This document shows positions 1-4,539 of a DNA stretch of 4,539 nt, one piece after another. A program made the translations under genes and the position numbers. Positions within the stretch are counted from its first letter, which is position 1. The number at the start of each line of letters is the position of its first letter. The notes under the pieces are model-generated. The model did no database searches. It saw only the letters and a program-made list of their open reading frames with translations, and was not told the DNA's origin. This stretch comes from a virus (lineage: Duplodnaviria; Heunggongvirae; Uroviricota; Caudoviricetes): IMG/VR virus record IMGVR_UViG_2778261274_000003. One strand, 5' to 3'.

Positions 1-56
1 ACACTGAATCTCCCGTCCAAAAGCGCAAATCATGCCATGCAGGCCAGAAACGGCCA

Positions 57-82
57 TTATTTAAAACCTCGGTTTACAGGAA
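57..82. repeat. 26-bp serine-invertase crossover site (gix/cix/hix-like), left boundary of the invertible segment
   Basis: Sequence TTATTTAAAACC-TC-GGTTTACAGGAA is two imperfect inverted 12-bp half-sites around a 2-bp core (69-70). Its reverse-complement partner is at about 2736-2761, sharing the 12-bp block ACCTCGGTTTAC. It closely matches the Gin/Hin-family crossover-site consensus as I recall it. Confidence 0.8.
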
Positions 83-943
83 ACGGTAAACAGGGCTGGT
101 AACGCCGTGCAAAAAAATGGCGATACCTTGTCCGGTGGGCTTACTTTTGAAAATGACTCAATCCTTGCCTGGATTCGAAATACTGACTGGGCGAAGATTG
201 GATTTAAAAATGATGCCGATGGTGACACTGATTCATACATGTGGTTTGAAACAGGCGACAACGGCAATGAATATTTCAAATGGAGAAGCCGCCAGAGCAC
301 CACAACAAAAGACCTGATGACGCTGAAATGGGATGCACTAAATATTCTTGTTAATGCTGTCATTAATGGCAGTCTTGGAGTTGGTTCGACGAATGCGTTA
401 GGTGGTAGCTCTATTGTTCTTGGTGATAATGACACCGGATTTAAACAGAATGGAGACGGTATTCTGGATGTTTATGCTAATAGTCAGCGTGTATTCCGCT
501 TTCAGAATGGAGTGGCTATTGCTTTTAAAAATATTCAGGCCGGGGATGGTAAAAAATTCACGCTATCCAGCTCCAACAACTCCACAAAGAATGCAACGTT
601 TAATTTATGGGGTGCTTCAACCCGTCCAGTAGTTGCAGAGTTAGGCGATGAGGCAGGATGGCATTTCTATAGCCAGCGAAATACAGATAACTCGGTAATA
701 TTTTCTGTTAACGGTCAGATACAGCCCAGCAACTGGGGGAATTTTGATTCACGCTATGTAAAAGATGTTCGCCTGGGTACGCGTGTTGTTCAATTGATGG
801 CGCGTGGTGGTCGTTATGAAAAAGCCGGACACGCAATTACCGGATTAAGAATCATTGGTGAAGTAGATGGCGATGATGAAGCCATCTTCAGACCAATACA
901 AAAATACATCAATGGCACATGGTATAACGTCGCACAGGTGTAA
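71..943 (+). CDS. Silent alternative tail-fibre C-terminal cassette (receptor-binding region, P2 gpH-like); no start codon of its own
   Basis: Open frame from the crossover site to TAA at 941-943. An in-frame TAA at 62-64, inside the outer half-site, closes it upstream. It ends ...RPIQKYINGTWYNVAQV and is followed 3 nt later by a cognate Tfa gene. The ORF-track start at 107 is a GTG inside this frame and is probably not a real start. Confidence 0.8.
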   Translation, partial: GLQETVNRAGNAVQKNGDTLSGGLTFENDSILAWIRNTDWAKIGFKNDADGDTDSYMWFETGDNGNEYFKWRSRQSTTTKDLMTLKWDALNILVNAVINGSLGVGSTNALGGSSIVLGDNDTGFKQNGDGILDVYANSQRVFRFQNGVAIAFKNIQAGDGKKFTLSSSNNSTKNATFNLWGASTRPVVAELGDEAGWHFYSQRNTDNSVIFSVNGQIQPSNWGNFDSRYVKDVRLGTRVVQLMARGGRYEKAGHAITGLRIIGEVDGDDEAIFRPIQKYINGTWYNVAQV

Positions 944-946
944 ATT

Positions 947-1474
947 ATGCAGCATTTAAAAAATATTAAGTCCGGAAATCCAAAAACAAAAGAACAATAT
1001 CAGCTAACAAAGAATTTTGATGTTATCTGGTTATGGTCCGAAGACGGTAAAAACTGGTATGAGGAAGTAAATAACTTTCAGGACGACACCATAAAGATTG
1101 TATACGACGAAAATAATATTATTGTTGCCATAACCAAAGATGCCTCAACGCTTAATCCCGAAGGCTTTAGTGTCGTTGAGATTCCAGATATAACAGCCAA
1201 TCGTCGTGCCGATGATTCAGGGAAGTGGATGTTTAAGGACGGAACTGTGGTTAAGCGGATTTATACAGCAGACGAACAGCAACAACAGGCCGAATCACAA
1301 AAGGTCGCGTTGCTTTCTGAAGCTGAAAGCGTTATTCAGCCACTGGAACGCGCTGTCAGGCTGAATATGGCGACGGATGAGGAACGCACACGACTGGAGT
1401 CATGGGAACGCTACAGCGTTCTGGTCAGCCGTGTGGATACAGCAAATCCCGAATGGCCACAAAAGCCTGAGTAA
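947..1474 (+). CDS. Tail-fibre assembly chaperone (Tfa), 175 aa, P2 gpG / Mu U-like
   Basis: ATG at 947 with AGGTG about 8 nt upstream. The N-terminus [22 protein letters not shown]...DGKNWYEE is the conserved Tfa N-domain. The 175-aa length matches P2 gpG as I recall it. It sits directly after the fibre cassette stop. Confidence 0.85.
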
Positions 1475-1479
1475 AAATT

Positions 1480-1499
1480 AAGGCCCGATATCGGGCCTT
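1480..1499. terminator. Bidirectional intrinsic terminator (20-bp perfect palindrome) between the convergent Tfa genes
   Basis: AAGGCCCGATATCGGGCCTT is a perfect palindrome with a GC-rich 6-bp stem. T-rich tracts follow on both strands (TTCTCTCATTC on plus, TTAATTTTTAC on minus). It lies in the 28-bp gap between the stops at 1474 and 1503. Confidence 0.6.
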
Positions 1500-1502
1500 C
1501 TC

Positions 1503-2036
1503 TCATTCTGGTTGTTCGGGAAACGTTACTGGCAGGCTGGAGGTGTCTGTAGATTCGACTTTCTGCGCAAAGAGCATCCACTCGGTTAATTTCTGCTTAT
1601 TCTCGTCGGAAATGATGCCCAGCCGTAGCTGTGAGTCCCATAGCTGGGTTTTATCCCTGACAAGTTGCAACAGGCTTTGCTTTTCATTTTCCGCTTGTTG
1701 TCTCTGCTCTTCCTCGGTATAAGTTCGCTTTATCACTACGCCATCTTTGAACATCCATTTCCCCGAAATATCAGCCCGGCGATTTGCTGTAATATCAGGT
1801 AATTCAACGACGCTTGCGCCTTCCGGATTAATTGCTGAAACATCCTTTTCAATACAAATAATAACGCCGTTATGGTCATAGACCATTTTCAAAGTGTCTG
1901 GCTGGAAATTCTTTTGTTCCTCATACCAGTTTTTTCCATCATCTGAATAAAGCCATTTGATGTTAAATTGCTTTGTTAGCTGGTATTGCTCTTTTGTTTT
2001 AGGGTTGCCAGCAGTAATGTTTTTTAAGTGCATCAT
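1503..2036 (-). CDS. Tail-fibre assembly chaperone (Tfa), 176-177 aa, cognate to the currently expressed fibre C-terminus
   Basis: ATG-ATG start at 2036/2033 with GGGGAG about 10 nt upstream, 2 nt after the fibre stop. The N-terminus [22 protein letters not shown]...DGKNWYEE is paralogous to the plus-strand Tfa, and the C-terminal third diverges. Confidence 0.85.
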   Translation of the reverse strand: MMHLKNITAGNPKTKEQYQLTKQFNIKWLYSDDGKNWYEEQKNFQPDTLKMVYDHNGVIICIEKDVSAINPEGASVVELPDITANRRADISGKWMFKDGVVIKRTYTEEEQRQQAENEKQSLLQLVRDKTQLWDSQLRLGIISDENKQKLTEWMLFAQKVESTDTSSLPVTFPEQPE

Positions 2037-2038
2037 CG

Positions 2039-3877
2039 TTAAATACTCCCCGCGTTATACCACGTCCCATTAATGCAATACTGAATTGGCCTTGCCTGTG
2101 TTGTATCAATTAATTCATCACGGTTTCCGTTAACTGAACCCGTAACGACATAACCTGACCTGTCAGACCAGCCGGGACCATTCCATGTCTGAACAGATGA
2201 CAGACCGCCAAGGCGAATACCTGTAATAAACCTTGAGTTACATTCTGCCTGCGTATATGCACCAACATCTCCCGCTGAAGGTTTTCGTGTCGTGGTATAG
2301 AAATCTGACCAACCTAATTCAAACCCATAACCATCACGAGCCGACCTGTAGGAAATGCCACCATTTTTATAATTCACACGGAATTGTACGGCAGGACAGC
2401 TACCAGCATTTATATTAAAGTGAAGAATTAATACAGATGCACCACCAATCAGGGCGTTATATGCACCACTATCCCAATTCCATCCAACGGATGTATCACC
2501 ATTAACAGTATTACCTGTTTGTCGGAGTGCAAATGCATTGACATTTTTGGCACTAATTGAAATATCGCTAGAACCATCAAAACCAACTCCAGCAATTTTT
2601 CGTGCTGTTTTCAGCTTTGTTGCAGTAGCGGCATTGCCGGACAGTTCCCCAGAAAGGCCACCGCTGAATGTTTGTCGATTGGTCCAGGTATTCGCTGTAC
2701 TGAGTAACGGTATTTTCTCCCCGCTTGTGCCGAGTTCTCGTAAACCGAGGTATTCGATAACGGCGGCAACGGTCGATTTCGCAAGAATATCCCGCCCGAC
2801 TTTTGTCAGAGTTGCCAGGCTGGCGACATCATTCCCCGTAAAATACGGAAACCTGTCTGCCGCAGTAGCAAGCCCGGCCAGCGCCGTCAGGGTGGCATCT
2901 TTCGGTTGCTTACCCGCAAGCGCGTTAGTCATGGTGGTCGCAAAATTCGGGTCGTTGCCCAGCGCCGCAGCCAGCTCGTTCAGCGTGTTCAGTGCATCAG
3001 GTGACGAATCTACAAGGGCGGCAATCGCAGCCATAACGAAAGCCGTGCTTGCGATTTGGGTATTATTCGTTCCCTGTCGCGCAGTTGGTGTTGTTGGCGT
3101 TCCGGTCAGCGCCGGGCTGTTTAATGGGGCTTTCTTATTTGTTTCATCCATTACTGCCTTAACCGCTTTCGATGTCGCGGCCAGTGTTTCAGACGTGCTG
3201 TTGGTGGCACTACTGAGCTGGACAATCCCTTTTTGTGCCGTCGTGGCGTCCTGAGCGGTATATTTTGCGTTAGCAAGATCATACGCGGCCTTTACCGCTT
3301 TTGGTGTTGCGGCGAGCGTTTCAGAGGTGCTGTTGGTGGCACTACTGAGCTGGACAAGACCTTTTCGCGCTGTAGTGGCGTCCTGTGCGGTATATTTCCC
3401 GTTAGCAAGGTCATAGGCTGCCTTGACCGCTTTCGGCGTTGCGGCCAGTGCTTCAGACGTGCTGTTGGTGGCGCTACTGAGTTGAACAAAGCCTTTTGCG
3501 GTCAGCGAGGCGTCCGGGTGACGTCGTGACTGTTCATGTTCTTTCAGTTTGTCATTCACGTAATCCACTGTGGCCATAACCATGGTGTTATCCACGGTAA
3601 GCGCCACGGTGGCAGTGCTGGATACGGTCAGAATGGTGCGAAATGTTTGTGCACGTCCGGATCCTTCGGCAACGGCTGGCTTGTAACTTTCGGCAGTATT
3701 GCCCACCGCGATCAAATCGCCGTGCTCATCAAATACACCAATTTCCCGGATCCAGAATCCGCCCGTTTCAGGAGGAATAACCAGCTCCGCAATAATGCGG
3801 TTCTGATGTGTTGCGTCCAGGATGACGCGATTAACAGTATGTCGCCACACCTCATGCACCAGACGGGTCTGCTTCAC
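2039..3877 (-). CDS. Tail-fibre protein, 612 aa as currently assembled (constant N-terminal shaft plus invertible C-terminal receptor-binding domain); apparently 5'-truncated
   Basis: Long ORF with a 132-bp tandem repeat region in the shaft. The crossover site is embedded in frame (…AAVIEYLGLRELGTSGEK…). The C-terminal domain contains GELSGNAATATKLKTARK and ends RPIQYCINGTWYNAGSI, typical of lambda Stf / Mu S / P2 H fibres. The start is GTG with no recognisable Shine-Dalgarno, and an in-frame stop lies 5 codons upstream. Confidence 0.85.
   Translation of the reverse strand: MKQTRLVHEVWRHTVNRVILDATHQNRIIAELVIPPETGGFWIREIGVFDEHGDLIAVGNTAESYKPAVAEGSGRAQTFRTILTVSSTATVALTVDNTMVMATVDYVNDKLKEHEQSRRHPDASLTAKGFVQLSSATNSTSEALAATPKAVKAAYDLANGKYTAQDATTARKGLVQLSSATNSTSETLAATPKAVKAAYDLANAKYTAQDATTAQKGIVQLSSATNSTSETLAATSKAVKAVMDETNKKAPLNSPALTGTPTTPTARQGTNNTQIASTAFVMAAIAALVDSSPDALNTLNELAAALGNDPNFATTMTNALAGKQPKDATLTALAGLATAADRFPYFTGNDVASLATLTKVGRDILAKSTVAAVIEYLGLRELGTSGEKIPLLSTANTWTNRQTFSGGLSGELSGNAATATKLKTARKIAGVGFDGSSDISISAKNVNAFALRQTGNTVNGDTSVGWNWDSGAYNALIGGASVLILHFNINAGSCPAVQFRVNYKNGGISYRSARDGYGFELGWSDFYTTTRKPSAGDVGAYTQAECNSRFITGIRLGGLSSVQTWNGPGWSDRSGYVVTGSVNGNRDELIDTTQARPIQYCINGTWYNAGSI
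2736..2761. repeat. 26-bp serine-invertase crossover site (gix/cix/hix-like), right boundary, embedded in the fibre coding sequence
   Basis: Plus strand TTCTCGTAAACC-GA-GGTATTCGATAA; its reverse complement TTATCGAATACC-TC-GGTTTACGAGAA is the inverted partner of 57-82 with the same TC core. It encodes VIEYLGLRE. Coordinates are +/-1 bp because of the frame discrepancy at line boundary 2700/2701. Confidence 0.8.
3152..3496 (-). repeat. In-frame tandem array (about 2.6 copies) of a 132-bp / 44-aa repeat in the fibre shaft
   Basis: Protein repeats KG[FLI]VQLSSATNSTSE[AT]LAATPKAVKAAYDLAN[GA]KYTAQDATTA[RQ]. The DNA block TCAGA(C/G)GTGCTGTTGGTGGC(A/G)CTACTGAG recurs at plus-strand 3189, 3321 and 3453, exactly 132 bp apart. 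Confidence 0.85.
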
Positions 3878-3885
3878 GCAGGGAA

Positions 3886-4206
3886 TCAGTTTTCAGCATG
3901 GCTGTTGTCCTCGTTGTTCAGTCGTTGCAGTCTGCGCTGCTCCAGTAATTCAATGGCCCGTTTATCCGCGTTACAGGTTTCCAGTGCATCCAGAAGGCGG
4001 TCGCCCCATATACCGAGATTTCCCCATGTGGGAGTATCAGGGAAGGGGGGAGGCATTACCGGTATGGTCAGCGTCTGCGGTATAAGCCGGACTGACGGCG
4101 CTGGCCGTGGCGCGTTCTGCGTGCCTGCGCAACCTGTCAGTAAAACGAGCGTCAGGCAAAGCGTGGGCGCATTCATCTTTTGCAATATCGTTGCGTAGCT
4201 GTTCAC
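3886..4206 (-). CDS. o-spanin (Rz1-like outer-membrane lipoprotein), overlapping the i-spanin gene
   Basis: Lipobox L-T-G-C after a hydrophobic stretch (…TLCLTLVLLTGCAG), then a proline-rich segment (APRPAPSVRLIPQTLTIPVMPPPFPDTPT). It starts inside the i-spanin gene in another frame and runs 150 nt past its stop. The GTG at 4206 has GGAGAG upstream; an alternative ATG is at 4176. Confidence 0.65.
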   Translation of the reverse strand: MNSYATILQKMNAPTLCLTLVLLTGCAGTQNAPRPAPSVRLIPQTLTIPVMPPPFPDTPTWGNLGIWGDRLLDALETCNADKRAIELLEQRRLQRLNNEDNSHAEN

Positions 4207-4444
4207 GTCTGGCCTCTCCGTCCTGATTGCGTTGCTGATTTTCCGCGCGGAGTTGTGCCAGCACCTGCTGCATATCCTGTACCCCGGCGCTGATGATATT
4301 CAGGGTGTCGACGGTACTTTTCAGGGTGCTGGCCTGCGCTTCGTTTCTGGCGTTCTCCCGGCCCAGTGACCACGACAGACGCATGGATGCTCCCCAGGCG
4401 GCAATCAGAAGAAAAGCGACGCCCAGCGTGGGCCAGAGCTTCAT
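4037..4444 (-). CDS. i-spanin (Rz-like inner-membrane spanin), about 135 aa
   Basis: Start at ATG 4444 gives an N-terminal transmembrane segment MKLWPTLGVAFLLIAAWGASM followed by charged, coiled-coil-like sequence. The ATG overlaps the upstream gene stop (ATGA), with GGAG about 11 nt upstream. The ORF-track extension to 4513 overlaps the upstream gene frame and reads as non-protein-like. Confidence 0.6.
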   Translation of the reverse strand: MKLWPTLGVAFLLIAAWGASMRLSWSLGRENARNEAQASTLKSTVDTLNIISAGVQDMQQVLAQLRAENQQRNQDGEARREQLRNDIAKDECAHALPDARFTDRLRRHAERATASAVSPAYTADADHTGNASPLP

Positions 4445-4539
4445 GCCGGATAAACTCCGTGCGGTAACTGAAAATGCGGTCCGTCTTTCAGGGTCTTCCA
4501 GTCGCCGCCCCATTCCACCGGAATATTCAGTTCCCGGCT
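4441..4539 (-). CDS. 3' end of the upstream lysis gene, probably an endolysin (partial; continues beyond the right edge)
   Basis: Open frame ending …SRELNIPVEWGGDWKTLKDGPHFQLPHGVYPA* with its TGA overlapping the i-spanin ATG. Its position immediately before the spanin pair is where endolysins sit. The WGGDW…D.PHFQ tail recalls LAS/M15-type peptidase endolysins, but that is from memory only. Confidence 0.4.
   Translation of the reverse strand, partial: SRELNIPVEWGGDWKTLKDGPHFQLPHGVYPA

Follow-up and report, generated by a model that had tools for sequence, protein, structure and literature searches.

Site-specific inversion of the Mu G, P1 C and e14 P segments has been textbook knowledge since the 1980s–1990s, as has the mosaic composition of the fibre genes of P2, Mu, P1 and lambda. 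In phage Mu, G(+) particles carry S/U and infect Escherichia coli K-12, while G(-) particles carry S'/U' and infect E. coli C, Citrobacter freundii, Shigella sonnei, Enterobacter, Serratia and Erwinia (PMC4406740; PMC11915804). The DNA considered here is a stretch of 4,539 nucleotides (nt) from a tailed phage (Caudoviricetes; IMG/VR record IMGVR_UViG_2778261274_000003), called the window throughout at its full length, and all positions are given in its numbering. Window 69–2748 is a Gin/Cin/Pin-type invertible segment flanked by two 26-bp gix-like crossover sites, and it is very probably an ordinary copy of the Mu G/P1 C invertible segment carried by a P2-like (Peduoviridae) prophage; the invertible-segment system itself is already known and of the textbook type. 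A sequence-only reading had described 83–2735, also in window numbering, as two mosaic cassettes with different receptor-binding domains and co-varying chaperones, and its observation is partly confirmed and its interpretation partly supported by what follows. That reading did not recognise the known Mu G/P1 C segment in these cassettes (DNA identity of 90–91% to Mu/D108 and P1 in common blocks).

From left to right along the window, the parts of the invertible locus are:

57–82: left crossover site, gix-like, arranged 12-2-12 as TTATTTAAAACC TC GGTTTACAGGAA, with its central dinucleotide at 69–70
69–943, + strand: off-line variable fibre part, P2 gpH type, in frame from the crossover site, with its stop codon at 941–943
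947–1474, + strand: off-line tail-fibre assembly protein (Tfa), U/G type, 175 amino acids (aa); PF02413, E 2.5e-36
1480–1499: hairpin rich in guanine plus cytosine (GC), AAGGCCCGATATCGGGCCTT, separating the two convergent tfa genes; resembles a terminator whose T-run is on the - strand
1503–2036, - strand: in-line tail-fibre assembly protein, U' type, 177 aa; PF02413, E 4.8e-36
2039–2748, - strand: in-line variable fibre part, Mu S'/P1 S' type, with an internal StfR-like block
2735–2760: right crossover site, reverse complement TTATCGAATACC TC GGTTTACGAGAA, with its central dinucleotide at 2747–2748
2749–3877, - strand: constant fibre shaft (Sc), P2 gpH type, 5'-truncated, with three Phage_fiber_2 repeats

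This arrangement is that of the Mu G segment, in the order constant part, site, Sv-U, convergent U'-Sv', second site and invertase, and the P1/P7 C segment (S, U, U' and Sv' with Cin) is built in the same way. A listing of open reading frames (ORFs) resolves the segment into two convergent cassettes (71–943 and 947–1474 on the + strand, 2039–2748 and 1503–2036 on the - strand), in each of which an alternative fibre C-terminal part is followed by its own Tfa gene, both Tfa products belonging to PF02413 (Caudo_TAP) and being of U type in one cassette and U' type in the other. Both 26-bp sites are enclosed by a 30-nt inverted repeat (53–82 / 2735–2764) that was found by repeat search; the sites are inverted relative to each other, share the central TC if both are read in one direction, and closely match the half-sites of Mu gix. 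The 12-2-12 architecture is also present in the annotated sites extracted from Mu, P1 and e14, and the central TC is identical in Mu gix, whereas P1 cix has a central TT. The exchange points are 69/70 and 2747/2748, and, given sites at 57–82 and 2735–2760, the 83–2735 of the sequence-only reading is therefore the interior of the invertible segment. Phage P2 contains a lone hybrid relic site within gene H (13853–13878; TTATCGAATATC TC GGTTTACAGGAA, with one core C-to-T mismatch), at exactly the position where the crossover site cuts the fibre of the window.

Inversion was examined by flipping 69–2748 in silico, symmetrically about the central dinucleotides. The fibre ORF, 612 aa when unflipped, becomes an in-frame ORF of 667 aa that is 85% identical to P2 gpH 48–669; one site lies within the fibre gene, and through inversion the constant N-terminal part acquires one or the other C-terminal part in frame, the off-line frame running from ...EYLGL across the crossover site into QETVNRAGNAVQKNGDTL.... 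Both orientations occur among relatives, with reciprocal exchange at the centre of the site. In complete E. coli genomes, counted at a coverage of at least 80%, the unflipped junction was found in 216 genomes and the flipped junction in 148, at up to 100% identity over 600 nt; the flipped-junction query was a 600-nt sequence joining the invertase side to the S'-type part, built from the 99.9%-identical O145:H28 locus. Even sister isolates differ in state, as seen in the near-identical farm isolates 33E (flipped) and 33F4 (unflipped) and likewise in the O145 isolates RM11626-C1 and RM12522-C8. In phage P88_4B11 (NC_049391) this segment (98.7% identical) is oriented the other way round, and the two sites there are exact reciprocal hybrids of those in the window.

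The recombinase that would be responsible is encoded next to the segment in these relatives, and its gene abuts the left end of the window:

1–56, - strand: spacer beside the invertase gene, whose GTG start (serine invertase of the 99.9%-identical O145:H28 locus) corresponds to window position 2, reading leftwards

The recombinase coding sequence of the O145:H28 locus occupies 3403–4002 on the - strand (locus 4001 corresponds to window position 1), and its product shares 81% identity with Mu Gin, 77% with e14 PinE and 72% with P1 Cin. An adjacent DNA invertase is annotated in P88_4B11 as well. The element thus appears to be a working kind of switch, which by comparison with its relatives would be expected to invert in the source strain as well.

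Several phages share parts of this locus at differing levels of identity. The window is 90–91% identical in DNA to Mu and D108 over 57–370 and 908–2537, but it differs from Mu in three places: its constant part is of the P2 gpH type and not the Mu S type, its U-linked tip is likewise of the P2 gpH type (46% identity to Mu S by BLASTP) with block 371–907 replaced, and the proximal 200 nt of its S'-type part (2538–2735) are without a Mu DNA match. Identity to P1/P7 is 88.5–89% in DNA over 75–370 and 737–2537, with 88.5% in the Sv' tip and 80% to P1 Sv' over the first ~64 aa past the crossover (aa 4–67 of the in-line fibre part, matching the Sv' N-terminus); in addition to the cix dinucleotide, P1 is distinguished by variable parts of 518–534 aa, as opposed to 235–290 aa here, and by being another host replicon. 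The off-line cassette corresponds to P2 H (380–669) plus G, with a DNA identity of 92% over 53–1467, and the shaft is 75% identical to gpH 49–376. The adjoining lysB and lysC genes are also P2-like, as is the baseplate order in the intact relative, whereas P2 is without U', S' and the invertase. The window is a member of the family of P2-like invertible-fibre phages (P88_4B11, P88 and Escherichia phage 503458). P88_4B11 has, in addition to the segment and the invertase, a shaft that is 96% identical, and it differs in its recorded orientation and in that its fibre gene is full-length and preceded by intact baseplate genes.

Reference proteins for the BLASTP comparisons came from annotated records of phages P2, lambda, Mu and P1 and of the K-12 prophages e14 and Rac. 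The off-line cassette, termed silent in the sequence-only reading and there likened to P2 gpH/gpG, encodes a fibre C-terminal fragment of 278–290 aa (71/107–943), which over all 290 aa is 96.6% identical to P2 gpH 380–669, so that the likeness holds for the fibre; it holds for the Tfa also, at 92.6% to P2 G, though this protein is closer to Mu U (97.1%) and is 96% identical to P1 U. This tip (107–943, + strand; O145:H28 locus 4107–4943) is listed as a 'hypothetical protein' in several RefSeq E. coli genomes, where its start is an internal GTG; it is actually an alternative fibre C-terminal part without an independent start.

The in-line cassette is best assigned, on protein identity, to the Mu S'/P1 S' type, in which its true nearest relatives are found. 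Over the last 165 aa its fibre part shares 89% identity with Mu S' and P1 S', rising to 100% over the last 60 aa; its Tfa is 97.2% identical to Mu U' and 96% to P1 U', with 56% identity to the U type. The two tips and their chaperone have solved structural relatives, 5YVQ (Mu S with U), which the off-line fibre part matches at E 2.6e-75, and 8JU3 (an S/S' chimera), which the in-line part matches at E 4e-97. The sequence-only reading had instead placed the in-line tip with lambda Stf and Rac StfR, and here one part of the label stands and the other falls. Residues 34–159 do share a 126-aa module with Rac StfR 775–900 (49% identity, E 2e-38), and the strings quoted in that reading are exactly this StfR-like block, but the block is internal in the 1120-aa StfR, away from its tip, and Mu S' and P1 S' are nearer. 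A tip of the lambda Stf/Rac StfR type was rejected on these grounds, the internal StfR block being the sole match and the StfR and lambda tips (...NIAFNYIVRLA) being unrelated to either tip here. Lambda Stf as a relative of the in-line tip was likewise rejected, BLASTP of lambda orf401 and orf314 against the in-line variable part giving no match (E > 3). In the constant shaft there is a likeness to lambda stf, which is 78% identical in DNA at 2745–3233.

As the sequence-only reading held, two different fibre C-terminal domains are present, and they are 32% identical over about 117 aa. Both fibres end in a common motif (RPIQKYINGTWYN / RPIQYCINGTWYN), RPIQ-xx-INGTWYN, in which xx is KY or YC; that reading was right that the motif is kept in both, but there are two variable positions and it wrote one too many. 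It was equally correct that the two Tfa proteins are alike in their N-terminal two-thirds and divergent C-terminally, identity being 71% over aa 1–120 and 26% over aa 121–177. At the DNA level the cassettes share a contiguous inverted block of ~410 nt (890–1303 / 1680–2092, 70–78% complementary by repeat search), which spans the fibre terminal motif and the first 119 tfa codons and has unrelated sequence on either flank.

It might be argued from this block, and from fibre tips that are still weakly alignable (32%) over their last ~110 aa, that the two cassettes arose when one tip-plus-chaperone unit was simply duplicated in inverted orientation and then diverged in place, with no mosaic or horizontal assembly. 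Such a history is hardly credible when the identities are taken block by block, and on those block-wise identities it was rejected. Divergence between the Tfa proteins sets in as a sharp step, from 71% to 26%, and their C-terminal ~55 aa (1306–1471, + strand; 1506–1670, - strand) are closer to lambda Tfa (48% for U and 31% for U') than they are to each other; because each is closer to lambda Tfa, simple divergence from a common copy does not account for the C-domains. Rather than matching one fibre family at equal identity, as a duplication would predict, the fibre parts match different families at unequal identity (P2 gpH at 96.6%, Mu S'/P1 S' at 89%). They also differ in length and in internal modules, PF21446 (Gp34_trimer) being present in one and the StfR-like block in the other, and a middle block of the silent fibre (371–907 or 371–736) has been replaced relative to Mu and P1, as has the proximal block of the in-line fibre (2538–2735). 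The mosaic breakpoints therein fall within both fibre and Tfa. Judged by these identities, the cassettes are better described as mosaic modules of different lineages than as a plain duplication, and in this the earlier interpretation of mosaic, horizontal assembly is upheld.

Base composition is consistent with this origin. The invertible segment has a GC content of 43.7% as against 55.6% outside it, with the step at the crossover site; the shaft stands at 54.6% and the spanin genes, lysC and lysB, at 56–59%. Within the segment the off-line variable fibre part (Sv) and Tfa are both at 43.6%, and the in-line Sv and Tfa are at 44.6% and 42.3%. The sequence-only reading was therefore accurate in finding the silent cassette more AT-rich than the shaft (43.6% vs 54.6%), but the in-line cassette is equally AT-rich, and the idea that AT-richness is special to the silent cassette was rejected, GC being about equal in both. 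P2 H steps likewise from 55.9% to 43.6% and Mu from 52% to 45%, and this shared drop fits a module travelling between phages. With their AT-richness and their identity of 89–98% with P2, Mu and P1, the cassettes have the appearance of old horizontally exchanged modules.

The state of the fibre gene in this particular copy is a separate matter, and it involves the right-hand end of the window:

3863–3874: deletion junction with imperfect microhomology (ACGGGTC..GCTT), at which ~3.56 kb is absent relative to the intact prophage
3886–4206 (lysC) and 4037–4513 (lysB), - strand: P2-type spanin genes; PF23793 LysC, E 1.8e-13; phrog_214 and phrog_3001, Rz-like

The in-line fibre ORF (2039–3877, - strand, 612 aa) is without its first ~50 codons. 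Its shaft is 100% identical to O145 H 51–423, the PF12571 match begins only at profile position 47 of 150, and PF03406 is matched three times; in place of an intact P2-like gpH/gpG module, with a PF12571 N-terminus in a V-W-J-I-H-G context, there is a truncated remnant. In alignment to the O145:H28 prophage, window 1–3874 corresponds to 4001–7874 (99.9%) and window 3863–4303 to 11432–11874. The stretch in between, which holds baseplate and tail-completion genes, has been removed: it comprised codons 1–50 of H, the genes I, J, W, V and S, and all of R after codon 9. The junction links tail-fibre codon 51 to lysC plus codons 1–9 of R, so that lysC/lysB adjoin the fibre remnant through the deletion. 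The sole in-frame start left to the fibre is a GTG at 3877, with no evident Shine-Dalgarno sequence before it. The sequence-only reading missed this truncation when it called the in-line cassette expressed, a word that describes position only, since the in-line fibre ORF is truncated.

The junction was present in 0 of 5,426 complete E. coli genomes (451-nt query, coverage of at least 80%), and a scan for its exact 30-mer found it absent from GTDB species representative genomes. Uniqueness of this sort would be expected if the join at 3863–3874 were an assembly or chimera artefact and the source prophage were intact, with a full-length expressed fibre. There is only a small chance of this, as both sides of the join keep the orientation and order of the intact prophage, the short imperfect microhomology (ACGGGTC..GCTT) is typical of spontaneous deletion, and defective P2-like prophages are common. 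Most likely the junction records a strain-specific deletion that left a defective prophage; the fibre gene being 5'-truncated by the ~3.56-kb deletion, the prophage is therefore probably defective.

A defective prophage could nonetheless keep a switch for the benefit of its host. The baseplate genes and the fibre attachment domain have been lost, yet the nearby deletion has left both crossover sites and all four cassette ORFs unharmed, and so the remnant might be retained as an inversion-controlled host function, for example through an inversion-dependent fibre/Tfa fragment that masks a surface receptor. A precedent has been reported in a cryptic prophage, where PinQ inversion of the e14 P segment yields StfE2, which acts in phage defence (PMC12529663). 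In the window, the remnant follows the late lysis genes and is oriented as they are. By analogy, fibre and Tfa fragments co-transcribed with those genes could bind lipopolysaccharide (LPS) or mask receptors, a proposal that we regard as very improbable. Retention for a host function is itself very unlikely, given that the GTG at 3877 has no evident Shine-Dalgarno sequence ahead of it, that a recent deletion would equally explain the intactness of the segment (the flanks are 98–99.9% identical to the intact O145:H28 prophage), and that a junction which is unique is not a conserved, selected state.

Two further features of the shaft were seen. Positions 3156–3551 consist of three 132-nt tandem units (the others being 86% and 64% identical to the first copy), equal to three 44-aa Phage_fiber_2 repeats, and the fibres of P2, P1, lambda and Rac contain similar repeats. 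The sequence CGGCCAGCGCCGTCAG forms a perfect 16-nt inverted repeat between the fibre shaft (2875–2890) and lysB/lysC (4092–4107); it exceeds the longest in 100 block-shuffled controls (maximum 15), and both of its arms are present in the O145:H28 prophage and neither in P2. As to transcription, the spot in D108 homologous to the 1480–1499 hairpin is annotated with rho-independent terminators on both strands. A promoter scan of the window gave 4 sigma-70-like matches against a mean of 6.2 in shuffled sequence and was uninformative, as expected because the late genes are Ogr-dependent.

How the segment would operate in an intact phage may be drawn from Mu and P1. The serine invertase encoded immediately to the left of the window would recombine the two inverted 26-bp gix-like sites at their central TC, and, because one site sits inside the tail-fibre gene, inversion would swap both fibre tip and chaperone, replacing the last ~235–290 fibre residues and the downstream chaperone by the alternative pair. 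In the orientation of the window the constant shaft would bear the Mu S'/U'-type tip, and in the inverted orientation the P2 gpH/G-type (Mu U-type) tip. As in Mu and P1, the invertase, together with Fis and an enhancer, would invert the segment in lysogens, and induced lysates would contain two fibre types. The two tips would by the same analogy give two LPS-dependent host ranges, a G(-)-like specificity being expected for the in-line state and one like that of P2 for the flipped state.

Several points weigh against this account for the present copy. A truncated fibre ORF means that the host-range function cannot operate in it, and at most 2 nt of the invertase gene lie in the window, its presence and integrity being taken from the 99.9%-identical relative. 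The receptor specificities are read from 89–97% identity to P2 and Mu proteins, and in SfMu, ORF49 is >95% identical to Mu S' and yet the host range is different (PMC4406740). Structurally the switch is intact, but there is probably no virion on which it could act.

The two chaperones may also be informative about the division of labour within Tfa. Mu Tfa stays on the fibre tip via its N-domain and drives trimer folding, and the C-domain that is conserved across the family has been proposed as the trimerisation driver (PMC9608196). Since U and U' differ almost only in their C-terminal ~55 aa (26%), it may be the C-domain, rather than the fibre-bound N-domain, that sets chaperone–fibre specificity. 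Here the N-domains agree with each other at 71% and with lambda Tfa at ~21%, the opposite of the family at large, in which the N-domain varies and the C-domain is conserved; the C-terminal ~60 aa of lambda Tfa are 43–48% identical to those of the U-type Tfa.

The locus is of little discovery value as such, since the sequenced phage P88_4B11 already carries this very segment. It does offer a clean case for annotation, in that the 'hypothetical protein' at 107–943 is an alternative fibre tip, and it illustrates that in a deleted prophage orientation by itself does not tell 'expressed' from 'silent'. For the P2-like phages its meaning lies in the comparison with P2 itself: the locus shows P2 gpH/G as one fixed state of such a switch, and to judge from the sequences P2 H/G looks like the flipped state, fixed in place after the loss of U', S' and the invertase.

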